Below, one piece after another: positions 4,813 through 54,664 of a DNA stretch of 64,000 bases. Numbering within the stretch: position 1 is the first letter of the stretch; each line of letters starts with the position of its first letter. The DNA comes from a bacterium (GTDB taxonomy: Bacteria > Myxococcota_A > Bradymonadia > REDH01). Below the pieces are notes generated by a model, which saw only the letters and a program-made list of their open reading frames with translations, did not search any database and was not told the origin of the DNA. A program made the translations under genes and the position numbers. Location of the stretch: the NCBI GenBank assembly GCA_030427825.1, contig JAUICO010000006.1, positions 16-64,015 on the forward strand, written 5' to 3'.

Positions 4813-6936
4813 TTGATTACATCACGCACACCGACCCTTGCATACGCACTGAAGGACGCCCTCGGCGAGGGCGCGCTGGACCTGCTCCTTGCCGATGCGA
4901 CGCTCGTCGAGGTGTCGTCCGGCGATGAGATTGTGCGCGAAGGCGAGCACGGCGACGCCCTGTATGTCGTGCTTGAAGGGGACGCGATCATCCACCGACA
5001 CAGCGGGGACGGCCGGGATACCGTTGTAGCGAACTGTGGTCCGGGCGAGCACTTCGGAGAAGCCGCGCTCCTGCCCGGACGCAGCCCTCTTCGCAGCGCC
5101 GGCGTGCGGGCGCGAACCCGGATGCGTCTGCTGAGAATCGAACGCGAGCACTTTCAGCGGGCCCTCGCCGCGGACCGTGCGTTCAAGCGACGCCTTGAGG
5201 AGCGAGCGGATTCACACCGGGCCGCTGCAGTTGTACGCAGCTCGGCGCTGCTGGATGCTCTTGGACTCAGCGACAACGAACGCGCCGCATCGATCGCTTT
5301 CGAGCGAGGCACTTCCCTCTTCGGTGCCGGGGAACCCGCGCGTGCGCTGTATTTCGTCATAAGTGGTGCCGTTGAAGTGTACGTCTCTACGGGCGATGGC
5401 GATCATGTGATCAGTACCCTGGGTGGCGGACATTGCTTCGGTGAAGTCGGGCTTCTCGAGGACGCGCCTCGGACCGCCTCGGCGCGCGTCATCGAGGATG
5501 CCCGGCTGCTGGTGATCTCGGCCGAGCACGTGCGCGCCACAATGTCAGAGTCGCCACGTCTCGCGGGCATTTTTCGCGAACTCAAGCGAAGCTACAAGTT
5601 GCCGCGAAGAGGCACGGTGACTCAGTACGTGAATCGCGTTGATGGCCAGGACGCGATTACGACGGTGTATGAGCTTGAGGGCCATAGGAGCGTTGTCGCG
5701 GTCAGATCGATGCGGGGTGAGTCATTCACCGCGCGCGTTGTCGGCGAGACCGCAACGAATAGGCTTCGGTACGCCGATAGGGAACACGGTGTGGAGCGCA
5801 GCCTGGGGTTGAGTGCATCTGGAGCACTCGTCGAACTCGTTGTGCACGGGCCGTGGATCCAACTCAGCGAAGTGTTTCGGTTGCTGCTTGACGGGGTGGA
5901 GAATGACGCCGGACTCACGGCACGGTTCGAAGAAGCAGGCTCGATCGCTTTGGCCGATGTTAACGAGAGCCCGGGCGTACGCTGTGTGTGTGTAGGGGCC
6001 GGCACGTCGGCAGTGATCGAAGCACTGCGGGTCGGCGATGGGAGCTTTTCAGAGCTTCAAGCCGAGACTGGCTGCGGTACCGTTTGCGGGTCCTGCGTGC
6101 CGGCGATTCGTCACTTCGTTGACAACGGCGTGTGGCGGCCGGCGGTGATCAGCGAAGACCGTTTTCTCGCTGAGGGCACGCGCGAGTTTGCAATCAAACC
6201 ACTTGATGGCCCAGCCGAGCGATTCGTCCCGGGACAACACATCGTGCTGTCCGGACTCGTTGACGGTATGTGGGTTCAACGCGCCTACACACTGACAACG
6301 GCGGGCGATCCGGCACCGGAGTATCGGATTGCGGTCAAGCGTGAACCATCGGGCGTGTTCTCGAACTGGCTTTTCTCTGAGGGTGGTCGCGACGCGATTC
6401 TGCAGGTGAGCTCGCCGCGAGGCAGCTTGTGCTGGAGCGCGGACGACCGCCCGACGGTGTGTTTGGTCGCTGGGATTGGCTGCACACCGGCGCTGGCAAT
6501 CGTTGCGGCTCACACGCAGCGCGAGTCGTCGAGTCCGCTGCACGTCGATTACTCGGCAGGCAATCGTGATTCAGCGGCGGCGCTCGACGCGCTCTCGGCG
6601 GCGGCAGAAGCATGCGGGTGCCTCACGCTGCGTACCCGGTTTACGTCGGATGAGGGGCGGATTGATGAGGCCGCAGTGGCTGCCCTGGCTTCGCAGCACC
6701 CGGCGGCGCAATACGTTATCTGCGGGCCGGAATCGTACGCAGGAGTCGTAATGCGCGGCCTCCGACTTGCGGGGGTTTCGGACGCTGCGATCCACACCGA
6801 GTCTTTCGTGCTGCAAAGTGAATCGCGGGCGACGAAGAACGATGGCGGGGGCGCGGACGTCAGGGGTGGCGGCGCGCGTCGTGCCTCACCCGGTGTCCTC
6901 AAGAGTCTGTTGCGAAGCGTGTTCGGCCGCGGCTGA
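4813..6936 (+). CDS. Fusion protein: two tandem cyclic-nucleotide-binding domains, a BFD-like [2Fe-2S]-binding motif, and a ferredoxin-NADP reductase-like FAD/NAD(P)-binding oxidoreductase domain.
   Basis: Two cNMP-binding-like segments (LVEVSSGDEIVREGEHGDALYVVLEGDAII...FGEAALL and SLFGAGEPARALYFVISGAVEVYV...CFGEVGLL). A C-x-C...C-x-x-C cluster (CVCVGAGT...ETGCGTVCGSCVP). An FNR-like RAYTLTT (RxY[ST]) FAD motif and a VCLVAGIGCTPALAIV NAD-binding motif. TTG start. Confidence 0.7.
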   Translation: MITSRTPTLAYALKDALGEGALDLLLADATLVEVSSGDEIVREGEHGDALYVVLEGDAIIHRHSGDGRDTVVANCGPGEHFGEAALLPGRSPLRSAGVRARTRMRLLRIEREHFQRALAADRAFKRRLEERADSHRAAAVVRSSALLDALGLSDNERAASIAFERGTSLFGAGEPARALYFVISGAVEVYVSTGDGDHVISTLGGGHCFGEVGLLEDAPRTASARVIEDARLLVISAEHVRATMSESPRLAGIFRELKRSYKLPRRGTVTQYVNRVDGQDAITTVYELEGHRSVVAVRSMRGESFTARVVGETATNRLRYADREHGVERSLGLSASGALVELVVHGPWIQLSEVFRLLLDGVENDAGLTARFEEAGSIALADVNESPGVRCVCVGAGTSAVIEALRVGDGSFSELQAETGCGTVCGSCVPAIRHFVDNGVWRPAVISEDRFLAEGTREFAIKPLDGPAERFVPGQHIVLSGLVDGMWVQRAYTLTTAGDPAPEYRIAVKREPSGVFSNWLFSEGGRDAILQVSSPRGSLCWSADDRPTVCLVAGIGCTPALAIVAAHTQRESSSPLHVDYSAGNRDSAAALDALSAAAEACGCLTLRTRFTSDEGRIDEAAVAALASQHPAAQYVICGPESYAGVVMRGLRLAGVSDAAIHTESFVLQSESRATKNDGGGADVRGGGARRASPGVLKSLLRSVFGRG

Positions 6937-6945
6937 GAGCCGTTC

Positions 6946-7704
6946 TCAGCCCGCGGCTTCAAGGGGCGCTATTGACACCTCTGTCGTGGGTGCCGGGGTC
7001 TGTTTCATGCGAAAATGCAGGAGGTAGAGGTAGACCAGATCCAACACGAGGATAGTGACACACAGGAAGGTGAGAAAGGCCCAATGCTCAATGTGTGGAT
7101 TCATCAGCGGCAGAAACACGTGGGCACCGATGGCCGTCCCGAGGGTTCCAAGCATCTTGAGCCATGCGCCGGCGACGCTGAGGCCGCGACCATCTTCGCG
7201 TTGAAAGAACGCCCAGATGAAGAGGACGCTCATCACAAGGTTGATGAAGAAGGCGTCGATGAGCGCGAGGCGGTCCTGAAAGGTGATCACGAAGGTCAGC
7301 TGCCCGGCGATGCCGATAACAATCGCCGCCGGCACCCACACACGGAACCACTTTCGCAACCAGTAGTTCTTCTGCATGGCGGCTCCATAGGTCCAAAGCT
7401 GCCAGACCAGCAGGCAGTCGAGCAAGAGCCAGCCCATGTTCAGGGCCGGCCACAGCGTGTTGAAGTTCGGCAGGATCAGATACATCGACTCCCAGCCGAA
7501 GTTCAGGCACATCGCGATCGCCGGCACCGCCGGAGCCTTGTCACGGAATCCTTTCCTGAGAAAGCAGATGTAGGCGAGGATCCATAGCACGCAGCCGAAA
7601 GAGCAGACGAGGTGGTACCAGGCCCAAAGGTCCAGGGCCTCGGGCGGGGCATTCTCAAAGTTTGGAAGATACGCGTTCAACATCGTCTCTGGCTCGCGGC
7701 GCAA
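6946..7704 (-). CDS. Multi-pass integral membrane protein of unknown function.
   Basis: 252-aa ORF with 6-7 hydrophobic helices and many W/F/L residues. No recognisable catalytic motif. Confidence 0.5.
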   Translation of the reverse strand: MRREPETMLNAYLPNFENAPPEALDLWAWYHLVCSFGCVLWILAYICFLRKGFRDKAPAVPAIAMCLNFGWESMYLILPNFNTLWPALNMGWLLLDCLLVWQLWTYGAAMQKNYWLRKWFRVWVPAAIVIGIAGQLTFVITFQDRLALIDAFFINLVMSVLFIWAFFQREDGRGLSVAGAWLKMLGTLGTAIGAHVFLPLMNPHIEHWAFLTFLCVTILVLDLVYLYLLHFRMKQTPAPTTEVSIAPLEAAG

Positions 7705-7840
7705 TCGTGGAGAGGTTTACTATCGTGCGTTATCTCGCGGCGGATGCACCGCGCCGCACAATGATGTCACTTGACCGAAGGGATGAGCATGTACCTGCTC
7801 GCCTCACGCGCGTCACACGATTTGTAGTATTACCCTCTCC

Positions 7841-7920
7841 AGGGAAGCACAGCTTTCCGCCGGGGTTCGAGGGGGTGAAAACCCGCTCGCAGAGCGCGAG
7901 ACAGCGTCTCGCACCCCGCC
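7841..7920 (+). repeat. Copy A (short form, ~80 nt) of a structured three-hairpin intergenic element.
   Basis: gGGAAGCacaGCTTTCC / gggggtGAAAaccc / GCGAGACagcGTCTCGCacc. It shares its order, palindromes and end motifs with the copies at 10215, 13113 (minus) and 13764. Confidence 0.8.
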
Positions 7921-8013
7921 CATGCGACGACACGGGCGCGCACCTCATCAGACACTGGTCGGGGTGGTGCCCCGCTGCTATGTCGACTGCCGATTCGTTG
8001 CTAAGGAGCACGC

Positions 8014-9234
8014 TTGTTACCTGCCAATGCACCGGTCCCGGACCGCTTCAGTCGCCGGGATGAAGCAGCGCGCATGTTCGGCGAGGACGCGCGCCGCTTC
8101 GCACAGTACATGATGCAGGGCGACCCCCTGGCTGATGCGCTCGCGTTGCGGCTGTCGAAGGGGCGAATCGGAGCGTCGCAGGCATTGGTGGACCGCGCGT
8201 TGCGCGAAGGCGTCGACCGACTGGGCGTGATTCCGGGCGAGCTTCGCGCCCTGCTGGATGAAGTTGAGCAGGTTCCGGACTGGGTAGACTTTGACAGAAT
8301 CCACCACGGTGCAGTGGCGGTTCAACGCCTGGGGCCGGCTGCCATGCTGATTCTCTCGGCGTGGTCGCTGATGAACAGCTATCACAGCGGACCGGCAGTC
8401 AAGGCACTGATGTTCACCGGAGAGTTAACGACTCGCGCGCCGCGTCGCCTGGCTGAGACGGGACGATTCGTCACGGAAGTGACGCAGGTGGATGGTCTCA
8501 GACGCTTTGGAAGAGGCCTTGAGATTACGGTGAAGGTACGCATCATGCATGCGCAGGTTCGCCGGATGATTCACGCAGATGCCTCTGTTTGGAATGCCTC
8601 TGCATGGGGCGCGCCGATCAATCAGGCGGACATGCTGGGGACGATTGTCGAGCTGTCTTTCCTGGTGATCGAAGGGGCCCGAAAGCTGGGTTTTCGGTTC
8701 ACAAGGAAGGAGCGCGAGGACATTGTTCACTTGTGGCGCTACGTCGGCCATCTTTCCGGGGTTTCACCCTGGCTGTTGGAGCATCTGGATTCCTACGAGC
8801 GTGGGTGGGAGTTCTCGCAGATGATCCGTATGGTGCAGGCGGGCTCCGACGACGACTCAGTCGCACTCGCGGCTGCGTTGAGAGACGCGAGCTACCAATC
8901 CGTATCAAGCAGGTTTGAGCGGATGATGTTGCCGGTTGTGACTCGACTGCATAACGGCCTAGTCTGGTCATTCAACGGGGATGAGATTGCGCGCGACTTG
9001 AAGACTCCGAACCGAGCGTGGCGGCATGCACGCCTGCCGATACGAGCCGTGATCAGCGTGCTCGAGCTGGTGCGAATATGTGTGCCGGGGATGTCTGCGG
9101 CACTGTCCAGGCGACGAAACGCCGCCGGCCTGGCGCGGATCTCATCGATGCTTGAGAATCGAGAGCCTGCGTTCACCGTGGGTTCGTCGACAGAGCGCCT
9201 TCTCTCGACCACGCCGCACCGGGCGATTGAGTAG
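8014..9234 (+). CDS. DUF2236 / MpaB-like oxygenase-family domain protein (tentative).
   Basis: 406 aa, TTG start 15 nt after AAGGAG. The RIMHAQVRRMIH segment and overall alpha-helical composition recall the DUF2236 family. No other motif identified. Confidence 0.4.
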   Translation: MLPANAPVPDRFSRRDEAARMFGEDARRFAQYMMQGDPLADALALRLSKGRIGASQALVDRALREGVDRLGVIPGELRALLDEVEQVPDWVDFDRIHHGAVAVQRLGPAAMLILSAWSLMNSYHSGPAVKALMFTGELTTRAPRRLAETGRFVTEVTQVDGLRRFGRGLEITVKVRIMHAQVRRMIHADASVWNASAWGAPINQADMLGTIVELSFLVIEGARKLGFRFTRKEREDIVHLWRYVGHLSGVSPWLLEHLDSYERGWEFSQMIRMVQAGSDDDSVALAAALRDASYQSVSSRFERMMLPVVTRLHNGLVWSFNGDEIARDLKTPNRAWRHARLPIRAVISVLELVRICVPGMSAALSRRRNAAGLARISSMLENREPAFTVGSSTERLLSTTPHRAIE

Positions 9235-9325
9235 AACAGCGGCTCCGGGAGTGCCGCTCCGGTATGGCCTGAGCGTCGAGTTGCCCCCGCTTGAGCACTT
9301 GAGCCGAGGCGACTAACGTGGCTGC

Positions 9326-10171
9326 ATGCTCACTCTCGCTCAGCGAATCCAAACACCGCCGCTGAAGTGCCAGGGCATAAAGACGAAGCTCCTGCCTTTC
9401 ATCGCTGCATCGATTGACTGGGATTACGCCGGGACGTGGATTGAACCCTTCGGGGGCTCTGGAGTGGTGGCGCTGAACATCGCGCCGCCGCGGGTTCGCT
9501 ACTCGGACGCGAATCCACATATTGTGAACTTGTATGCCGGGATTCGCGACGGGCGGGTGACGCCGGAGTCGGTACGTGTACACCTTGAACGCGAAGGCGC
9601 ACAGCTTCTCGAAATCGGCGAAAGTCACTACTACGCGATTCGATCGCGATTCAATGCGTCGCATGATGCACACGACTTTATCTTCCTAAATAGGAGCTGT
9701 TTCAACGGCCTGATGCGCTTTAACCGTAGCGGCGGTTTCAACGTTCCTTTCTGCCGCAAGCCGGAGCGATTCCGACCTGCGTACGTCACGCGCATCGTGA
9801 ACCAGGTCGCGGCTATGGCGATGGCGATGCAGCGATCAAGTTGGGAGATCCTTTGTCTGGATTGGAGGGAATGCGTCGCGACCGCCGTCGCCGGCGATCT
9901 TGTGTACATGGATCCGCCGTATATCGGCCGTCACGCTGACTACTACACACAATGGGATGAGAGCGAAGCCCAGGCGCTTGCGGCGTGGGCGCGCAGTGCG
10001 CCCTGCGGATTCGCCTGTTCGATGTGGGCAAAGACGCAATATCGCACCAACACACACCTCGAAGAGGACTGGTCCTGGGCACGCACCGTGACCACGGAGC
10101 ACTTCTTTCATCTGGGCAGCTACGAGAAGCTGCGCGGCGGAGTCACCGAGGCCCTGCTGCTGCCCGCATAG
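9326..10171 (+). CDS. Dam-like (D12 class) N6-adenine DNA methyltransferase, an orphan with no restriction-enzyme partner.
   Basis: EPFGGSG (motif I; E. coli Dam has EPFVGAGSV). FLNRSCFNGLMRFNRSGGFNVPF matches Dam LYLNRYGYNGLCRYNLRGEFNVPF. DPPY catalytic motif (VYMDPPYI). ATG start. GC content slightly below the flanks. Confidence 0.85.
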   Translation: MLTLAQRIQTPPLKCQGIKTKLLPFIAASIDWDYAGTWIEPFGGSGVVALNIAPPRVRYSDANPHIVNLYAGIRDGRVTPESVRVHLEREGAQLLEIGESHYYAIRSRFNASHDAHDFIFLNRSCFNGLMRFNRSGGFNVPFCRKPERFRPAYVTRIVNQVAAMAMAMQRSSWEILCLDWRECVATAVAGDLVYMDPPYIGRHADYYTQWDESEAQALAAWARSAPCGFACSMWAKTQYRTNTHLEEDWSWARTVTTEHFFHLGSYEKLRGGVTEALLLPA

Positions 10172-10214
10172 AACGGCGCACTCAACCCCGACTGCTGCTA
10201 CCAACCCCCCATCA

Positions 10215-10349
10215 GGAAAGCGCAGCTTTCCGCAGGGATTCCAAAGGGTGAAAACCCTTTGGCAGAGCGCGAGAAGCAATCGAGTCCGGTTGCCGGTGGC
10301 AACCGAGCGAGAGCGCTAGTGCTGATCGCGTAGCGAGCAGTCTCGCACC
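10215..10349 (+). repeat. Copy B (long form, ~135 nt) of the structured element.
   Basis: GGAAAGCgcaGCTTTCC / ccaaagggtGAAAaccctttgg / GCGAGA + ~70-nt insert (ccggttgccGGTGgcaaccg and cgcta...tagcg hairpins) + cagTCTCGCacc. ~85% identical to the reverse complement of 13113-13247. Confidence 0.8.
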
Positions 10350-10354
10350 ACGCA

Positions 10355-12037
10355 CTACTCGTCGCTGATCGTCAGCTCGGCGCCCATCAGCACCGGCTTC
10401 ATCACCTTGCCTGAGGCATTGCGCGGAAGTGGTTCTCGTCGAATCTCCCAGTGTGCCGGAATCTTGAAATACGCGAGCTTTGATTCCAGCGCCTGTTTGA
10501 TCTCATCGATATCCGGTGTGGCGCCGGGTAGGGGAACCAGGATGGCCTTGCACTCCTGCCCCAGCTCCTCGTGCGGGACGCCTACGACGGCCACCTCGTC
10601 GATTCCCGGCAGCAGCGCGAGCTGCGCCTCGATCTCTGCAGGGTAGATGTTCTCGCCTCCCCGAATGATCAGATCAGTGCGCCGGGACGCGATGTGCAGT
10701 CGCCCGTCGCGCAGGAAGCCGATGTCGCCGGTGCGCAACCACCGGTCACCGGTGATTCGCTCCGCGGTCGCCTCCGGATTGCGCCAGTAGCCCTGCATGA
10801 CAAGAGGAGAGCGAATCCAGATTTCGCCGATCTCACCGTCTGGCAGGCCGACCCCGTGGTCGTCGCGTATGCTCACCTCCACTGTCGGTAGCGGGCGCCC
10901 CACAGACGTGGGAAACTGTGCGAGCTCGTCGCCGAAAGTGATGGTTGCCAGCGCGCAGGCTTCCGTCAGCCCGTATCCCACGGCAGCGGTGGTTCTCACG
11001 CTCGGCATGCGCGTTTTGAGTTCCGTCATCAGCGCCTCAGAGACCGGTGAGCCGCCGAGCCCGACAAAGCGCATGCTGCTGAGGTCGTATTGGTCGAAGT
11101 CCGGATGAGCGAGGACGCGATGCACCATCGTGGCGGTCGGCCCCCAGCCCGAGACCCGCTCGCGCTGAATGATCTCGAGGATTTCGCCGGCATCGAAGCG
11201 TCCGACGGTCCACACCGTTTTGGCGCCTACGACCATGCGGGTGATAATTCCGGCGTAGAGCCCGGACACATGAAAGAGCGGCGTACTCACCAGGGCGCAG
11301 TTTTCTTCTGTCTGAACCACATCAACACCGCGCAGCTGGTCGAGCATGCTCGCACGTGCGCCGTGAAATATCTGAATCCCGGTCAGAGCAATGATGTTGC
11401 GGTGTGTGGCTACAATGCCCTTCGGTCGCCCGGTCGTGCCGCTGCTGTAGAGAATCGCCGCCGGGTCGTCTTCGTCGATGTGTGTTTGGCAGAGCGCCGC
11501 GTCCATGTGTGGACGGGTCAGGGCGTCAAAGCCCTCTTCAATCACGACCGTCGGACACATCTCTCTCGCTTCGGGAGCCCGCGCCAGTCGCTTGCGATCT
11601 ACGAAGAGGACCTTTGGTACACAGTCTTTCAGAGCAAACAGGATCTCGTCACGCACCCACCAGCCGTTCAGCCCGACAGGGAGAGCGCCGAGGCTGATAG
11701 CGGCCCAGAAAGCGATGACCCACTCCGGCTTGTTTGAGGCCAGAATCGCAACTCGGTCACCCTTTTGAACGCCAAAGCGCTCACGCAATGCGGCCGCGGT
11801 GGCGCACACCAACCGATAATGTTCTGCGTAGGTGATTCTGCGATCGCCGAAGATGACGTATTCGCGTTCACCGAAGCCTGCGCTTGCGGCGAGTACGTCT
11901 CGCAGCGAGCGGTGGCGGCTTCGAAACACAGACATCGGGACACCGGCGACATCTTCGATGTGTGTTTCGAAGTGGCTTCCGGGTGCCAGCAACGCGGCCT
12001 CAATCCCGGCAAGGTCCGCCGCAACGTCAGGTGACAT
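10355..12037 (-). CDS. AMP-dependent synthetase/ligase (acyl-CoA synthetase family).
   Basis: YSSGTTGRPKG AMP-binding signature. ~560-aa two-domain adenylate-forming enzyme layout. Its start overlaps the upstream AKR stop by 11 nt. Confidence 0.85.
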   Translation of the reverse strand: MSPDVAADLAGIEAALLAPGSHFETHIEDVAGVPMSVFRSRHRSLRDVLAASAGFGEREYVIFGDRRITYAEHYRLVCATAAALRERFGVQKGDRVAILASNKPEWVIAFWAAISLGALPVGLNGWWVRDEILFALKDCVPKVLFVDRKRLARAPEAREMCPTVVIEEGFDALTRPHMDAALCQTHIDEDDPAAILYSSGTTGRPKGIVATHRNIIALTGIQIFHGARASMLDQLRGVDVVQTEENCALVSTPLFHVSGLYAGIITRMVVGAKTVWTVGRFDAGEILEIIQRERVSGWGPTATMVHRVLAHPDFDQYDLSSMRFVGLGGSPVSEALMTELKTRMPSVRTTAAVGYGLTEACALATITFGDELAQFPTSVGRPLPTVEVSIRDDHGVGLPDGEIGEIWIRSPLVMQGYWRNPEATAERITGDRWLRTGDIGFLRDGRLHIASRRTDLIIRGGENIYPAEIEAQLALLPGIDEVAVVGVPHEELGQECKAILVPLPGATPDIDEIKQALESKLAYFKIPAHWEIRREPLPRNASGKVMKPVLMGAELTISDE

Positions 12038-13019
12038 CGTTGCCGATCAGCATCACCTCTTCGGTGCGGTCCGTGGCAGGTGGCGGTGTCGGCCACATGT
12101 CTGAGATCTCCTGATACAGGTCGTCGCTGATTCGATAGTCCGCGCCGTCGAGAAGCGGGCGCATCTGCTCAACGGTGCGGGCACCGATGATGGGGGCTGT
12201 CACCGCCGGGTGGGTGCGCGCCCACGCCACGGCCAATGTCGCGGGGTGCACGCCGGCCTTGTTTGCGATCCCGACAAACTGTTCAGCGGCGGCGTAATAG
12301 TGCGGGTCCGAATACCGCGCCCTGTACATTTTGTTTGACACCAGGCGCCCCGAAGGCGGTCGCAGGTCTTTGCCGTACTTGCCGGTAAGCAATCCACCGG
12401 CGAGGGGGCCGTAGGCAAGTACGCCGAGTCCCTCGGACTGCGCCATCGGCAGAATCTCTACTTCGGCCTGGCGCTTCACCGCGCTGTACATAGGCTGAGT
12501 GCAAACCGGCCGGGCCCAGCCGTACTTCTCACACATGTCGACGGCCTTCTGCGTCTGCCAGGCCGAAAAGTTGCTGACCGCCGGGTAGAGGATCTTTCCC
12601 TGCCGAACGAGGTCGTCCACCGCCCGCATCGTCTCGTCGAGAGCGGTCATGCTGTCGTAGCGGTGCAGGAAGAAGACATCGATGTAGTCGGTCCCAAGAC
12701 GCCTGAGGCTGGCTTCAACAGCCCGCACCAGATGGTAGCGCGACAGCCCCCAGTCATTCGGTCCCTTTCCGGTGGGAAAGTACGCCTTGGTGGTCAGCAC
12801 GATGTCATCCCGCGACCGCCCGATCAGCTTGCCAAGCAGCAGTTCACTGCGCCCCTTCCCGTAGATATCGGCGCAGTCGAAGGTGTTGATCCCGGCGTCC
12901 ATCGCCGCCCGAAACAGAGCGGCCGAAGCCTGGTCGTCTGCGTCGCCGCCGAAGGCCATCGTACCGAATACCAGCGCCGATACTTTGACGCCCGTGCGCC
13001 CCAGCAGCTTGTACTGCAT
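12027..13019 (-). CDS. Aldo/keto reductase. The true start is the ATG at 13019; the listed ORF has a 186-aa spurious extension.
   Basis: MQYKLLGRTGVKVSALVFGTMAFGG...DTFDCADIYG...LHRYD is the AKR signature. First gene of an operon with the acyl-CoA synthetase. Confidence 0.85.
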   Translation of the reverse strand: MQYKLLGRTGVKVSALVFGTMAFGGDADDQASAALFRAAMDAGINTFDCADIYGKGRSELLLGKLIGRSRDDIVLTTKAYFPTGKGPNDWGLSRYHLVRAVEASLRRLGTDYIDVFFLHRYDSMTALDETMRAVDDLVRQGKILYPAVSNFSAWQTQKAVDMCEKYGWARPVCTQPMYSAVKRQAEVEILPMAQSEGLGVLAYGPLAGGLLTGKYGKDLRPPSGRLVSNKMYRARYSDPHYYAAAEQFVGIANKAGVHPATLAVAWARTHPAVTAPIIGARTVEQMRPLLDGADYRISDDLYQEISDMWPTPPPATDRTEEVMLIGNDVT

Positions 13020-13112
13020 CGTCAGTTCCCCAGGTTCGAAATTGGTGTGCGCAACAGCTACACGATCCGAAGTCGCCGGGGAATGCCGCCGCGCGATCGG
13101 GTGCTTACGCGA

Positions 13113-13247
13113 AGTTGCGAGACTGCTCGCTGCGCGATCAGGACTACCGCTTTCGCGCGGTTGCCACCGGCAACCGGGCTCAATTGCTTCTCGCGCTCTG
13201 CAAAGGGGCTTTCGCCCCTTTGAACCCCGGCGGAAAGCTTCGCTTTC
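13113..13247 (-). repeat. Copy C (long form, minus orientation) of the structured element.
   Basis: The reverse complement reads GGAAAGCgaaGCTTTCC / caaaggggcGAAAgcccctttg / GCGAGAagcaattgagcccggttgccggtggcaaccg...cagTCTCGCaa. It is in the sense orientation for the AKR operon and ends ~96 nt before the AKR ATG. Confidence 0.8.
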
Positions 13248-13374
13248 CTGAAGAGCGTCTTGAGCTGCGGACACTCCTGAGAATAGCAGTGGCCGAGCTT
13301 CGAGAATGTGACGTCGAGCACTATAGCGGCAATCATCTTGCGCGAGTGCGAATCGAACTACTGAGGAGACCCTG

Positions 13375-13722: not shown

Positions 13723-13763
13723 TTCCAGGCGCCCACAATCATCCGACCCGAAAAACCACCAAC

Positions 13764-13838
13764 GGAAAGCGTAGCTTTCCGTGGGGTGCAGGGGCATGCG
13801 CCCCTGCCGGGAGCGCGAGGGCAGCGCCCTCGCACCCC
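13764..13838 (+). repeat. Copy D (short form) of the structured element.
   Basis: GGAAAGCgtaGCTTTCC / gcaggggcatgcgcccctgc / GCGAGGGCagcGCCCTCGCacc. The stems of hairpins 2 and 3 differ from copy A but remain self-complementary. Confidence 0.75.
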
Positions 13839-13971
13839 CACGCCGCTACTCAGAGCGCCACTCAGATTTGACCCGGTGGGCGTGTCGATCTAGCTGCCAT
13901 GTACACTCGCACGATCGGGACCGGCGCTGCCAGGCGCGGGGGACACGTGTGGCCAGACCCCGGGTTTTGGA

Positions 13972-16527
13972 ATGACAGTCGCCAGACTACTGCTCGCTAC
14001 GTCAGCGGCAATGCTCTTCGCATTGATGGGAGCTGCGCATGCGGCGTGCCCGGATCAGAACCTCGGTTCTCAGCTGGGAACGGTGGCGACGGGTTCTACA
14101 TGTGATGCGTTGAATGACGACGCCGGCAGCTGCGGGACGGTGAATGGGACGGATGAAGATGTCGCATTCGTTTGGACGGCGCCCGAGGCCGGCACCTACA
14201 CTTTTGCGACCCTCGGCTCGAGCTACGACACGGTAATCTACGTGCGCGACGGCGAGTGTGGCAGCACGGAGCTGGCCTGCGACGACGACACGGCGGACGG
14301 GACCCTGTCGCTCATCAGCGATCTGCCACTCGCGGCGGGTCAGACCGTCACGATTCATCTGGACGGCTACAGCGGGTGCGGAAACTACTCACTGACGATT
14401 GAGAATACGACGACGCCACCCTGCGCCGATGAGAACATCGGCTCGGCTCTTGGCGCGGTCTCCTCCGGGACCACCTGTGGGCTGGGAGACGTCATTGAGG
14501 GAAGCTGTGACAGCGGAAGCGGTGGCGAGGAGCGGATCATCGCGTGGACCGCGCCGCAGTCCGGCGACTACACTTTCAGCCTCGCCGGCTCCTCGTACGA
14601 TACGATTCTGTCGCTTCGCAACGGCGCATGTGACGGCGTGGAGCTCGGTTGCGATGATGACGGCATCGACATCGGTGGTGCATCGCGGCTCAGCGATGTG
14701 GCTCTGAGCGCGGGCCAGGAGATCTTCATCGTTGTCGATGGGTACACCGGCTGTGGCAGTTACTCGCTGAACATCTCCGGGAACTTCCCGGCCCCGTGTC
14801 CGGGCACCGACCTTGGCAGCGCGGTGGGCAACGGAGTGGCGGGCGGCACTACCGGCGGGACCTCGGGCATGACCTCGGGCTCCTTTGGAGACTGTTCCGG
14901 ATCGACCGGACCGGAGGCATCCTATCTTTGGACTGCACCGGCTACAGGCACCTACAGCTTCAGCACAGACAACGGCTCGACCAACTTCGATACAGTGCTC
15001 TATCTTCGCGCGGTCGGATGTTCGGGCGCGGTAATCGCGTGCAGCGACGATGAAGACCCGGGCGGCTTCTTTGGCGGCGGTAACTCGCGGTCGTCGATCT
15101 CGGGAATCAATCTCAGCGGCGGACAGCAGGTGGTGATTGTCGTCGACGGATACGACAGCACTGAGAGCGGTTCATTCGCCCTCGACATTGGCGGCGGCTG
15201 GTGCGGCGACGGCACCATTCAGGCAGGGGAAGAGTGCGACGGCGCCGGTACCGTGAACATCTCCGGTCAGTCCGACTGCGCGACGCTGGTGCCGGGTTCA
15301 TCAGGTGTTGTTGTTTGCGGCGAGACCGGAATCAGCGGTTGCCGGAGAGACACCAGCGGGTGCTCGGTGACCTGCACACCGAGCACAGAAGTGTGCGACG
15401 GGCTGGACAACGACTGCAATGACACCGTCGATGATGGCGGCTCGGCGTTGTGCAGCGACCCGCCAAACGCAAGCGGTGTGTGCAACGGATCTGCCGGCTG
15501 TGGGCTGATCTGCAACTCGGGCTTCTTTGACGGCAACGGCGACGTATCCGACGGATGCGAGAGTTCGTCGTGCCAACCGACGAACGGCGGCGTCGAAGTG
15601 TGTGATGGTTTGGACAATGATTGTGATGGTACCAATGACAATGGGGGCAACGCGCTGTGTGTAGACCCGGCAAACGCGACCGCAGTGTGCAACGGAGCAG
15701 CTGGGTGTGCGTTGGTTTGTGACAATGGGTTTGTCGACGCGAACGCTGATGCATCGGACGGCTGCGAAGTCGCGGTGCTCACGGACAGTGACGGGGATCA
15801 GGTACCCGATGCAAGTGACAACTGCCCCTTTACTGCGAACGTCGACCAAACGGACACAGATGGGGACGGCGTCGGTGACGCCTGTGACACCGTGGGCCCG
15901 GTAGACAGCGACGGTGACGGCATCAGCGACGAGAACGACAACTGCCCGCTGAACAGCAACCCGGGTCAGGAAGACAGCGACGGCGACGGCGCCGGCGACA
16001 TCTGCGACACGGGGGACCCGCCGGACGGCGACGGCGACGGCATCGCTGACGCAAACGACAACTGCCCCCTCGTCGCGAACGCGGATCAGGCAGACGACGA
16101 CAACGATGGCGTCGGAAATGTATGCGACACGACGGGCCCTGCGGCGGACACGGACGGCGACGGCGTCGTCGATTCCGAGGACAACTGCGTTGCTGCTTTT
16201 AATCCCGGGCAGGAAGACAGCGACTTCGATGGTATTGGCGATGTCTGCGATACAGGCACCCCCGGGGGCGATGCGGACGGCGACGGCGTGCCCGACGCTA
16301 CCGACAATTGTGTTCAGGTTCCCAATACCAGACAGACAGACACGGATCGCGACGGTATCGGCGACGCCTGTGACACGAACAACAACGCAGGTGGTGGCGG
16401 ATCGCGGCCGTCGGGAACGCGGGTGCGCGGCGGCTCCCTGTTTGGTTGTGCGTCATCGCAGGCGCCGGCCTCGGGCGTCGCGCTCCTGCTGATCGGTCTG
16501 CTCTGTGTGGTCAGACGTTTGAGGTGA
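13972..16527 (+). CDS. Large secreted multi-repeat protein with a MYXO-CTERM-like sorting tail.
   Basis: Signal peptide (MTVARLLLATSAAMLFALMGAAHA). Four ~125-aa N-terminal repeats (CPDQNLGS...GSSYDT...CDDD...GYSGCGNYSL). CGDG...EECD and CDGLDNDC(N/D)D cysteine repeats (Myxococcus-type / MopE-like). About ten thrombospondin-type-3-like Ca-binding repeats (DSDGDGI(A/S)DENDNCP). C-terminal GCASSQAPASGVALLLIGLLCVVRRLR. Confidence 0.75.
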   Translation: MTVARLLLATSAAMLFALMGAAHAACPDQNLGSQLGTVATGSTCDALNDDAGSCGTVNGTDEDVAFVWTAPEAGTYTFATLGSSYDTVIYVRDGECGSTELACDDDTADGTLSLISDLPLAAGQTVTIHLDGYSGCGNYSLTIENTTTPPCADENIGSALGAVSSGTTCGLGDVIEGSCDSGSGGEERIIAWTAPQSGDYTFSLAGSSYDTILSLRNGACDGVELGCDDDGIDIGGASRLSDVALSAGQEIFIVVDGYTGCGSYSLNISGNFPAPCPGTDLGSAVGNGVAGGTTGGTSGMTSGSFGDCSGSTGPEASYLWTAPATGTYSFSTDNGSTNFDTVLYLRAVGCSGAVIACSDDEDPGGFFGGGNSRSSISGINLSGGQQVVIVVDGYDSTESGSFALDIGGGWCGDGTIQAGEECDGAGTVNISGQSDCATLVPGSSGVVVCGETGISGCRRDTSGCSVTCTPSTEVCDGLDNDCNDTVDDGGSALCSDPPNASGVCNGSAGCGLICNSGFFDGNGDVSDGCESSSCQPTNGGVEVCDGLDNDCDGTNDNGGNALCVDPANATAVCNGAAGCALVCDNGFVDANADASDGCEVAVLTDSDGDQVPDASDNCPFTANVDQTDTDGDGVGDACDTVGPVDSDGDGISDENDNCPLNSNPGQEDSDGDGAGDICDTGDPPDGDGDGIADANDNCPLVANADQADDDNDGVGNVCDTTGPAADTDGDGVVDSEDNCVAAFNPGQEDSDFDGIGDVCDTGTPGGDADGDGVPDATDNCVQVPNTRQTDTDRDGIGDACDTNNNAGGGGSRPSGTRVRGGSLFGCASSQAPASGVALLLIGLLCVVRRLR

Positions 16528-52987: not shown

Positions 52988-54664
52988 ATGTTGATGAAGA
53001 CTCGCATTCATCAGGTTGCGGTACTTGTCCTCGCCGGGCTGCTTGCTGCCTGCGGTAGCAAGCAGAGCGCTACTGAGGGCAGCACAGGCACCACCCGTCC
53101 GGACGCCCGACCGACTGCACAGGCAGCAGCGCCCAACGCCTCCCCTGCGCAAGCGCCTGCCCCGGCCGCTGCGCCGACAGAAACGATTGCGGAAGCAGAG
53201 CCCGCTCCGGAGGATGCGGCGCCCATCGTGGCGCCTGAAGACGGTACCATTGAAGAGCGTCTGATGTACCGGATGGAGGAGGCCGTTGATCGCGCCCGCC
53301 GCGGTAATTTCGAGATCGCGAAGGTGGAGTTGCTTCAGCTGCTGCGCGAAGACCAGGTGGCTGCATACGCGGCTTACAACCTTGGTGTCATCGCGTACTA
53401 TGAGGGTCAGACCGGTCAGGCGCTGGAATATTACGAAGTCGCGCTCGAGCAGGACCCGACCTTCGCCCCACCGTTGCTCGCGACGGTGCGTCATCACATG
53501 GCGGGTGGCGATACATCGGTGGCTCGCGACCTGGTCCGACGACAACTGCAGAACTCGGAAAACGCGCCGACCGTTCAGGGCGTCGAGTTGTACCTGACGC
53601 TGGCCGACGGTCGCTACGAACAGGTTATCCAGGACGGTCGCCAGGTATTGATCGCTGACGCCGGCAATATGGATGCGCATTTCACGATGGCGATGGCGCA
53701 CTACAACCTGGGCCGGCTTGAGCTCGCTCGCTATATTCTCGAAGAGGGAATCTCGCGCGACGAAGGCCGTCCCGATTTCTACTTTGCTCTTGCTCGCATC
53801 TACCTTGACCGCGACGAGAAGATCCGCGCGCGAACCTACCTCGAGCGGGCGCTTGAAATTGACTCGAGTCACCCGGAAGCGAGCAACAACCTCGGCGTGC
53901 TGAATCTCGAGTCACGAAACTTTGAAGCGGCAGAACAACTGTTTCGCGGTGCCATCGAGCGTGCTCCGAACTACGAAGAAGCGTGGGTGAACCTGGGGAA
54001 CGCGTTGAAAGGTCAGCAGCGATACAATGAGGCCCGTGATGCATACAACCGGGCCATGCAGATGAGCCCGACCTATCCGGCGCCGTACTACAACCTGGGA
54101 ATTCTCTTTCTGGATACCGAGATGGACGGACTGGGTGAGGCGGACCGAATTCAGCGCGCGCTGGAGTACTTCAGCGACTTCCGAACCCGCTACGGTGCGG
54201 GTCTTCCCGCAGAGCATCCGGTCAACACCTACCAGAGTGAAGCGGTTGCACGCCTCGAAGTCATTCGCGAGCTGGAGCAGAGTGCGCAGCTGGAGCAGGA
54301 GCAGGACACACGGCAACCGGAGCAGTCCAATCAGGAAGGCGGGTACGCCGATCAGGCTTGCTTCGACGACTTCTGTGTTGACGATGCCGATCCGGACCAG
54401 TGCTACCAGGATTTCTGCGGAGGCTCCGGCAGTGACGGCGGCGATAGCGGGACGCCGGCGAGCTATCCGGACCAGGGATGCTTTGAAGAGTTTTGTGAAG
54501 GGGAGATGGACGAAGCCCAGTGCTATGAGGACTTCTGTGGCGGCTCCGACGACGAAGACACTGAGAGCTCGGATGGCGGCGGCTATGAAGACCAGCAGTG
54601 TTTCGACGACTTCTGCGCGGGCGATGCCGACCCCGACCAGTGCTACCGCGACTTCTGCGAGTAG
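52988..54664 (+). CDS. TPR-repeat lipoprotein with a C-terminal 4x Cys-rich acidic repeat.
   Basis: MLMKTRIHQVAVLVLAGLLAACGSK (lipobox). TPR repeats (YNLGVIAYYEGQTGQALEYYEVALEQDP...). The C-terminus carries four copies of Q.CF(D/E)(D/E)FC....D..QCY.DFCGG. Confidence 0.7.
   Translation: MLMKTRIHQVAVLVLAGLLAACGSKQSATEGSTGTTRPDARPTAQAAAPNASPAQAPAPAAAPTETIAEAEPAPEDAAPIVAPEDGTIEERLMYRMEEAVDRARRGNFEIAKVELLQLLREDQVAAYAAYNLGVIAYYEGQTGQALEYYEVALEQDPTFAPPLLATVRHHMAGGDTSVARDLVRRQLQNSENAPTVQGVELYLTLADGRYEQVIQDGRQVLIADAGNMDAHFTMAMAHYNLGRLELARYILEEGISRDEGRPDFYFALARIYLDRDEKIRARTYLERALEIDSSHPEASNNLGVLNLESRNFEAAEQLFRGAIERAPNYEEAWVNLGNALKGQQRYNEARDAYNRAMQMSPTYPAPYYNLGILFLDTEMDGLGEADRIQRALEYFSDFRTRYGAGLPAEHPVNTYQSEAVARLEVIRELEQSAQLEQEQDTRQPEQSNQEGGYADQACFDDFCVDDADPDQCYQDFCGGSGSDGGDSGTPASYPDQGCFEEFCEGEMDEAQCYEDFCGGSDDEDTESSDGGGYEDQQCFDDFCAGDADPDQCYRDFCE

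Follow-up and report, generated by a model that had tools for sequence, protein, structure and literature searches.

The question raised by this locus is whether two copies of a short repeat, A and B, mark the borders of a mobile cassette. The stretch of DNA that was analysed (the window) is 64,000 nucleotides long, and an earlier note on it had proposed that A and B bound a cassette gained or excised by recombination between the repeats. The layout behind this proposal is confirmed. A and B are in direct orientation about 2.3 kb apart (2373 nt start-to-start) with 81% identity over a 69-nt module, and matches to PF09995 and PF02086 show that they enclose exactly two genes, one for a DUF2236 protein and one for a D12 methyltransferase.

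Genes between and around the repeats

The first of the enclosed genes (8014..9234, + strand) encodes a putative oxygenase of 406 aa from the MpaB/Lcp family, also known as DUF2236 (PF09995 MPAB_Lcp_cat, E = 2.4e-18). It has a TTG start with an AAGGAG ribosome-binding site ahead of it. The second gene lies 91 nt away on the same strand (9326..10171) and encodes an intact, solitary D12 (alpha-class) N6-adenine DNA methyltransferase of the M.EcoRV family, 281 aa in length (PF02086, E = 1e-33). The left flank is a Pyr4-like transmembrane terpene-cyclase family protein of 252 aa (6946..7704, - strand; PF25129, E = 3.3e-22) and the right flank is an AMP-binding acyl-CoA synthetase of 560 aa (10355..12037, - strand; PF00501 and PF13193). 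The synthetase gene overlaps by 11 nt the upstream gene for an aldo-keto reductase (12027..13019, - strand; PF00248), which is the first of a reductase-synthetase pair. The true start of the reductase would be the ATG at 13019, since the PF00248 match covers the long open reading frame only from residue 202 on, and NCBIfam models align from residue 1 once translation is taken from 13019. The DUF2236 oxygenase may work with the adjacent synthetase and reductase. A conserved DUF2236 neighbourhood containing the Pyr4-like, synthetase and reductase genes was not seen in four homologue contexts. The wider setting of the methyltransferase consists of core chromosome genes, namely those of RecC, PurL, LeuRS and ValRS.

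The nearest homologues of the DUF2236 protein are 48–54% identical, and all of those that are named belong to the Myxococcota (Sandaracinaceae, Polyangiales, Myxococcota). Named relatives of the methyltransferase come from Planctomycetota, Chloroflexota, Armatimonadota and Cyanobacteria, with others located on plasmids of Geobacillus, Acinetobacter, lactic acid bacteria and E. coli. Judged in the case of DUF2236 from the names of distant matches, the two genes differ in ancestry. The best protein identities are 59% for the methyltransferase, 54% for DUF2236 and 59% for the acyl-CoA synthetase; no exact protein records were found for the methyltransferase or the Pyr4-like protein of the window. 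Neither gene of the enclosed pair was accompanied by the other in the four methyltransferase contexts or the four DUF2236 contexts. A scan of genome contigs with the acyl-CoA synthetase gave a best match of 52% identity, and no gene of the methyltransferase, DUF2236 or Pyr4-like kind lay within 10 kb of any of 80 loci.

The earlier note had also described the methyltransferase gene as lower in GC than its surroundings. The value is literally lower (59.3% against 62.7% for the window), but the gene is no outlier among 38 genes (GC z = -0.98, GC3 z = -0.77, codon-usage z = 0.01). With respect to tetranucleotide use, 74% of equal-sized windows deviate more than the A–B interval. The compositional deviation anticipated for a cassette is not seen, and a foreign interval was rejected as GC, GC3, codon likelihood and tetranucleotide distance all fall within the normal spread of the window. 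This native composition is also compatible with an old joint acquisition of both genes.

A three-hairpin repeat in four neighbouring spacers

A degenerate pattern of the repeat core has six matches in the window, compared to 0.02 expected, and a covariance model run over the 64 kb identified four copies at 79–96 bits (E = 1e-16 to 1e-20) with no fifth score above noise. Copies C and D were absent from the earlier account. Copy A (7833..7917, core 7833–7901, + strand; 96.4 bits, E = 3.9e-20) is a short form that occupies the divergent spacer between the Pyr4-like and DUF2236 genes, its end lying 97 nt 5' of the DUF2236 start. It folds into three hairpins with no insert in the third (-42.5 kcal/mol, z = -2.7). 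Copy B (10206..10349, core 10206–10274, + strand; 83.1 bits; -67.5 kcal/mol, z = -4.6) is a long form with an insert of about 59 nt in the loop of hairpin 3, and it fills the convergent spacer between the stops of the methyltransferase and acyl-CoA synthetase genes. Copy C (13114..13257, - strand; 82.8 bits; -68.7 kcal/mol) is also long, is inverted relative to A and B, and occupies the divergent spacer that separates the reductase gene from that of a small membrane protein, where its end is 95 nt 5' of the reductase start. Copy D (13756..13836, + strand; 79.5 bits; -59.7 kcal/mol, z = -6.0) is a divergent short form located between the genes of the small membrane protein and a TSP3-repeat protein. 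The short form is about 83 nt in length (85 nt for A) and the long form about 144 nt; no open reading frame is present in A (85 nt) or B (144 nt). Thus, all four copies are intergenic and occupy, in both orientations, four neighbouring spacers of the divergent, convergent and tandem kinds between 7.8 and 13.8 kb.

The architecture of the element is three consecutive hairpins in a fixed order. Over the 69-nt module, C is 83% identical to both A and B. The latter two copies, B and C, are 87% identical over 142 nt and form an inverted match of 136 nt that is 88% complementary, whereas the longest exact run shared by A and B is 13 nt. Hairpin 1 is conserved in sequence, whereas compensatory changes preserve the structure of hairpin 2 but not its sequence. 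The element contains an invariant palindrome (GGAAAGC-N3-GCTTTCC). In the three-hairpin model, calculated from four sequences, 97.4% of the cells are paired and six pairs are changed on both sides, a result matched by at most 2 of 500 shuffles; the compensatory pairs are mostly supplied by copy D. Fold z-scores across the copies range from -2.7 to -7.5, and both strands fold equally well.

The best explanation of the element is a REP-like intergenic repeat. REP/BIME families of enterobacteria and pseudomonads are dispersed through the genome in many copies, share a conserved GTAG-type head and are accompanied by a RAYT (Y1 transposase). Like them, the element is strictly intergenic, is present in both orientations, forms stable hairpins with compensatory changes in the stems, is modular, existing in a short and a long form, and is clustered. 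It differs in having no positionally conserved GTAG head and in its three different hairpins, the order of which is fixed, where a REP family repeats a single palindrome. Its copies are known from one 6-kb stretch of the 64 kb, and no RAYT was matched among the scanned proteins of the window, though one may be encoded elsewhere in the genome. A literature search for REP elements in myxobacteria returned nothing relevant.

Three other classes of repeat were considered. A MITE was rejected as the termini match at 2–5 of 20 positions, leaving no terminal inverted repeats, and their flanks have no more than 4 nt in common, with no target-site duplication. The same flanks, together with the 81% identity of copies that hold no open reading frame and the absence of a transposase in the scanned genes, argue against a composite transposon or IS-bounded module, which was likewise rejected. 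Integron attC sites carry R'' (RYYYAAC) and R' (GTTRRRY) cores in one orientation with IntI nearby, which is optional in integrase-less clusters. The element resembles attC sites, including those of integrase-less clusters, in being a structured repeat of variable length between genes whose structure is better kept than its sequence. It differs in that it is composed of three independent hairpins as opposed to one long imperfect hairpin, that copy C is inverted, that the genes lie on both strands and that no integrase was found. Both cores are absent from both strands of every copy, and a cassette array or attC cluster was rejected. More generally, Pfam scans of 37 of the called genes and the other scans of the window identified no transposase, integrase, recombinase or tRNA gene.

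The clustering of the element needs comment. Four copies fall in about 6 kb, and a rough estimate places this at 16 of 3876 placements among the 19 spacers of at least 100 nt. Such a cluster is atypical for a dispersed REP family and could point to a role specific to the locus. The element may then be a cis-regulatory module, with an operator at the palindrome, a structured 5'-UTR RNA, or both, whose targets would be the DUF2236 gene, the reductase-synthetase pair and the TSP3 protein gene; the methyltransferase would be an unrelated insertion between the DUF2236 gene and a terminator-like copy B. Consistent with this, all four copies are grouped around a single gene neighbourhood and some 15 other spacers have none, and copies A, C and D precede start codons by 97, 95 and 136 nt, each in the sense orientation. 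The contrast between a hairpin kept in sequence and one kept only in structure also fits, as does the restriction of the element to this locus in the searches made. In the loci of 18 relatives, the covariance model found only a chance match within a coding region. Viral contigs gave zero matches in one scan and four chance 19-mers in another, and a pattern scan of metagenomes gave at least 120 seed matches, none of which, among the matches listed, extends past the 23-nt seed. Other observations argue against regulation. Copy B has no downstream gene to regulate, and promoter-like sites are absent in and near the copies; matches from a promoter and terminator scan were no more numerous than in shuffled sequence. 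No Rfam family matched the window at the gathering threshold, with nothing relevant around the copies at E ≤ 1. The equal folding of the two strands gives no RNA polarity, the structure draws on four sequences only, and no conserved gene cluster surrounds the DUF2236 homologues. A regulatory module of this kind is unlikely.

A broader proposal, for which the probability is quite low, is that the element is no generic REP but a module for regulation or recombination, not described before, that is specific to this locus in an unsampled Myxococcota-like lineage. If true, it might act as a shared operator or 5'-UTR RNA that coordinates a putative isoprenoid-cleavage set made up of the Pyr4-like cyclase, the MpaB-like oxygenase, the acyl-CoA synthetase and the aldo-keto reductase. 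Alternatively, the locus might be a hotspot at which accessory genes such as the methyltransferase swap in and out.

Family and origin of the methyltransferase

The methyltransferase scores 117.6 bits against PF02086 (cut-off 22) and 160.9 bits against TIGR00571 (cut-off 114.85), and its motifs are arranged in the alpha order with EPFGGSG at residues 40–46 followed by DPPY at 196–199. All 75 invariant columns of a 10-sequence alignment are retained, including EPFxGxG and DPPY. Its identity to M.EcoRV is 42.5% across 275 aa (E = 2e-83), and to M.Gst, the methyltransferase of an R-C-M unit on a Geobacillus plasmid, 51%. PADLOC matched it at full length to the type II model MTase_II PDLC03264 (E = 3.7e-104), compared to E = 8.8e-32 for the best orphan model. 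The similarity to EcoRV-like type II systems, such as those of pEC159 from E. coli (NC_019982), a Geobacillus plasmid (CP128456) and pRMAR01 from Rhodothermus, thus covers the same D12 alpha-class fold, a full-length alignment, 42.5–51% identity and every invariant motif. In contrast to those systems, the gene is found in the core chromosome rather than on a plasmid, and the place upstream of it is taken by the gene of an unrelated oxygenase.

The earlier note was correct that the methyltransferase has no restriction endonuclease partner. A tblastn search of the whole 64-kb window with five restriction enzymes for an EcoRV-family nuclease (PF09233) produced only noise (E ≥ 0.56), as did one with two C-proteins for a controller, so that no remnant of a nuclease or C gene was detected; Pfam scans of 37 of the called genes in the window also revealed no nuclease partner. 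Among the five closest chromosomal homologues, P0012 and P0021 are located directly 3' of a PF09233 EcoRV-family nuclease. Two further homologues, P0002 and P0005, share one conserved solitary context in another lineage, and orphan members of the M.EcoRV family can therefore persist. Solitary methyltransferases homologous to restriction-modification (RM) components are common in chromosomes, with thousands surveyed, and often arrive alone rather than through decay in place (Oliveira et al. 2014, PMC4176335). The present enzyme resembles the orphans of that survey as a lone type II-like chromosomal methyltransferase with no mobile-element genes nearby. The earlier note had offered a remnant of an RM or phage system as a possible origin, and an RM remnant or derivative fits the M.EcoRV family membership and the type II PADLOC assignment. 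A phage origin was rejected: the best phage match reaches 45% identity on a contig that lacks annotation, and all others stay below 34%.

The reading that fits the methyltransferase best is a solitary enzyme of RM descent that has long been resident. Its codons are typical of the host, and it would therefore have been resident for a long time. An ancient horizontal transfer most likely brought it in, whether by itself or as part of an R-M pair whose R was subsequently lost. At present it may be a neutral or protective leftover, or it may have been domesticated as an epigenetic mark. As a member of its family, the enzyme probably targets a GATATC-like site. Neither GATATC nor GATC is depleted in the window, giving no sign of restriction-site avoidance.

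If the enzyme were a domesticated epigenetic regulator that is kept for gene control, as are Dam and CcrM, and not a passive RM leftover, then an intact gene, the retention of every residue invariant in the family and host-typical codons would all be in keeping, as would the solitary context shared by P0002 and P0005. On the other hand, it falls outside the known regulator families and is not among the characterised orphan regulators. The earlier note had set a grouping with core CcrM/Dam-like regulators against its own proposal, and such a grouping was not observed: the NCBIfam Dam equivalog NF008152 scored 75.9 bits against a cut-off of 441, PF01555 was absent and PF02086 was the sole Pfam match. 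The frequency of GATATC in the window is also unremarkable, at 15 sites compared to 13 expected. Domestication for gene control is considered improbable, and the reading of a long-resident RM-derived enzyme is preferred.

A repeat-bounded cassette or ordinary chromosome

The proposal that the DUF2236 and methyltransferase genes form a unit inserted or excisable by recombination between A and B has some points in its favor. The direct repeats enclose exactly two genes on one strand with 91 nt between them, the methyltransferase family is horizontally mobile, and one Logan contig from this organism breaks off within B, as contigs do at repeats. Yet C and D place the element in every large spacer here, and the bracketing is expected by position alone; because these copies exist, the bracketing is not unique to the DUF2236-methyltransferase pair. 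The better-matched pair of copies is B and C, which are inverted and lie around the synthetase and reductase, genes that are not cassette-like. A is a short form and B a long form, and the two are 81% identical with a longest exact run of 13 nt, well below the need of RecA-type recombination. Target duplications, terminal repeats and attC cores are all absent, no recombinase gene was found among the called genes, the composition is native, and the two genes differ in ancestry and were never together in the contexts examined. The cassette was not supported, though it is not strictly refuted. It is regarded as very unlikely. The lesson for method is that a gene pair enclosed by direct repeats should not be taken for a cassette where that repeat also occupies the spacers nearby.

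The A–B interval is probably ordinary chromosome in which repeats and unrelated genes are juxtaposed, and not a repeat-bounded mobile cassette. In a poorly sampled genome that is probably Myxococcota-like, a lineage-specific REP-like element would occupy four adjacent spacers, and A and B would happen to flank two unrelated genes: an oxygenase with relatives in what appears to be the host's own phylum and a methyltransferase whose composition would by now be fully host-like. The repeats themselves probably act like REP elements, as structural modules or modules for RNA stability or termination that have spread locally, and not as an agent that imports genes.

The significance of the juxtaposition is small. 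Solitary RM-derived methyltransferases and REP-like repeats are both common, and their proximity here appears incidental. The element is of interest as a clean repeat family, conserved in structure and existing in a short and a long form, which has no Rfam counterpart and was not found beyond this genome in the collections searched. The methyltransferase, for its part, leads to the prediction that m6A would be present at a GATATC-like site in a lineage without sequenced close relatives.

Four copies of a hairpin element

The earlier note described two direct copies of an intergenic element that enclose exactly two genes. A 69-nt core (7833–7901) is repeated in direct orientation at 10206–10274, with a start-to-start distance of 2373 nt and 81% identity, and the two genes enclosed share one strand: a DUF2236 gene (8014–9234; Pfam PF09995 MPAB_Lcp_cat/DUF2236, E = 2.4e-18) and a D12 N6-adenine methyltransferase (methylase) gene (9326–10171; PF02086, E = 1e-33). 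While this arrangement holds, the element has four copies, of which C and D had been omitted. Copies A (7833–7917) and D (13756–13836, divergent) are short forms on the forward strand; B (10206–10349, forward strand) and C (13114–13257, reverse strand) are long forms. A degenerate core pattern gave six matches against 0.02 expected, placing the repeat far above chance. Run over the 64 kb, a covariance model derived from these copies scored them at 79–96 bits and the remaining sequence at 22 bits or less. The host spacers are four neighbouring intergenic regions (two divergent, one convergent and one tandem), and the window's other spacers of 100 nt or more, about 15 in number, contain no copy. 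By a rough estimate, random placement would put all four copies, which lie within 6 kb, in adjacent spacers in about 16 of 3876 cases; their clustering could reflect local spread or a locus-specific role.

Copies A and B are not a special pair. Identity over the shared 69-nt module is 81% for A and B, and 83% for both A and C and B and C; over 142 nt, B and C are 87% identical. The longest exact run is 13 nt between A and B versus 20 nt between B and C, and 13 nt of identity is well below what efficient homologous recombination needs. Since nearly every large spacer in this patch has a copy, bracketing applies to any of its genes or pairs of genes. By the same logic, the acyl-CoA synthetase and aldo-keto reductase genes, enclosed by the inverted copies B and C, would make a better bracketed module.

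The two genes between copies A and B

The earlier note had also suggested that the methylase gene was slightly lower in GC than its surroundings. Its composition is native: GC is 59.3% (z = −0.98), with z-scores of −0.77 for GC3 and 0.01 for codon usage. The corresponding values for the DUF2236 gene are −0.31 for GC and −1.9 for codon usage, and the tetranucleotide profile of the A–B interval is nearer the window average than that of 74% of equal-sized windows. Every named relative of the DUF2236 protein is from Myxococcota, as are several relatives of the flanking acyl-CoA synthetase. Named relatives of the methylase are found in Planctomycetota, Chloroflexota, Armatimonadota and Cyanobacteria, as well as on Firmicutes and Proteobacteria plasmids. 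The two genes were adjacent in none of the eight homologue contexts examined. Composition, ancestry and co-occurrence all speak against one acquired unit, and the proposal that the repeats mobilised a cassette is not supported. Most likely, the methylase gene simply neighbours a host-lineage oxygenase gene.

Full-length and of the alpha class of D12 enzymes, the methylase carries the motifs EPFGGSG and DPPY and retains all columns invariant across ten family members. With 76 bits on the Dam equivalog model against a cut-off of 441, it is not a Dam or CcrM orthologue; sequence comparison instead places it in the M.EcoRV family. It shares 42.5% identity with M.EcoRV of plasmid pEC159, 51% with a Geobacillus plasmid enzyme and 44.6% with an enzyme of Rhodothermus pRMAR01, each encoded in a unit that includes an EcoRV-type nuclease and, in two cases, a controller protein. 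PADLOC agrees, with E = 3.7e-104 for a type II methylase model versus 8.8e-32 for the best orphan model.

The five nearest chromosomal homologues align at 56–58% identity. Two lie directly downstream of a PF09233 EcoRV-family nuclease and three are solitary. Two of the solitary genes, from another lineage, share a conserved context (contigs L001, 6700–8861, and L223, 2688–4882) with a 4-nt overlap between a PQQ_2-like gene and the methylase start, and a radical-SAM gene on the downstream side. The arrangement suggests an orphan of an M.EcoRV-type restriction-modification (RM) family stably retained in that lineage. A further solitary homologue (48% identity) was observed on Allochromatium plasmid pAt1 (contig L214, 5280–6629), with a gene for an IscB RNA-guided endonuclease approximately 360 nt downstream of it.

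No remnant of a nuclease or controller protein was found in the window, consistent with the earlier observation that the methylase lacks an endonuclease partner; together with family membership, this makes it a solitary member of an RM family. GATATC is not depleted in the window (15 observed, 13 expected). The reading of the methylase as an RM-derived orphan is supported, and it is most likely an old, fully ameliorated, solitary M.EcoRV-type enzyme. Chromosomes very commonly carry solitary methylases of RM families, and it has been argued that these more often arrive alone than result from decay in place (PMC4176335).

Gene neighbourhood

The window is core chromosome, encoding RecC, PurL, LeuRS, ValRS and cytochrome oxidase. 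It contains no tRNA gene, and neither an integrase nor a transposase turned up among its scanned genes. The best homologues of the methylase, DUF2236 protein and acyl-CoA synthetase reached at most 59% identity in the collections searched.

Between 6946 and 13019, a Pyr4-like transmembrane terpene cyclase gene is divergent from the MpaB/Lcp-like oxygenase (DUF2236) gene, beyond which come the acyl-CoA synthetase and aldo-keto reductase genes, with an 11-nt overlap between them. These four may be a gene set for isoprenoid oxidative cleavage and activation that has the methylase in its middle; the neighbourhood was not conserved around four DUF2236 homologues. A Logan contig from the same organism (L090, run SRR24442553) matches 10320–12912 in reverse with an identical acyl-CoA synthetase. 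One end reaches 29 nt into the 3' end of copy B, which hints, weakly at best, at assembly breakage caused by the repeat; the other falls within the reductase gene, where there is no repeat.

Several further genes of the window were also noted. A 707-aa fusion (4813–6936) combines two cyclic-nucleotide-binding domains, a BFD-like [2Fe-2S] domain and an FAD-binding oxidoreductase domain; PADLOC matches to Pycsar/TIR effectors fall at residues 22–138, presumably the cNMP-binding region. An 851-aa secreted protein (13972–16527) has many thrombospondin type 3 repeats, with tandem DNA repeats at 15.8–16.4 kb, a Cys-containing, hydrophobic, Arg-rich, MYXO-CTERM-like C-terminal tail, and a sub-threshold match to the cell-cohesion protein MtsC. 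This protein supports a Myxococcota-like host. The 3' portion of a TPR-protein gene (52988–54664) contains three 120-nt tandem repeats (54338–54659).

Class and possible role of the element

Every copy has three consecutive hairpins. In hairpin 1 (GGAAAGC-N3-GCTTTCC) the sequence itself is conserved; in hairpin 2 an 8–9 bp stem is maintained by two-sided changes at five positions; a single compensatory pair is seen in hairpin 3 (GCGAGA...TCTCGC). The long form is the short form plus approximately 59 nt in the loop of hairpin 3 (10275–10335 and 13128–13188). This insert carries its own perfect hairpin, CGGTTGCC-GGT-GGCAACCG, which occurs in the window only in B and C, and the two forms give the element a modular architecture, like a variable stem. 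In the four-sequence alignment 97.4% of cells are paired and six pairs are changed on both sides, values reached in at most 2 of 500 shuffles; sliding the pairing partners lowers pairing to 38–55%. Single-sequence folds range from −42 to −69 kcal/mol (z-scores −2.7 to −7.5), with the two strands about equal.

The copies contain no terminal inverted repeats, target-site duplications or attC core motifs, and no GTAG at a conserved position. No Rfam family matched the element, and it was not found in the nearest relatives' loci searched, among the 120 metagenome seed matches listed or in the viral contigs searched. Its profile is that of a lineage-specific REP/BIME-like repeat, known here from four copies in 64 kb. 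Most likely, this REP-like element has spread into adjacent spacers of one chromosome patch.

In the sense orientation, copy A ends 97 nt before the DUF2236 start (7917–8014) and copy C 95 nt before that of the aldo-keto reductase (13019–13114); 136 nt separate the end of D from the TSP3-repeat gene downstream (13836–13972). These positions could point to a role within the 5' UTR or close to the promoter, but no gene lies downstream of B. In an improbable, minority reading, the clustered element would be a module specific to this locus, for regulation or recombination; that reading would be the sole route to an interesting locus.
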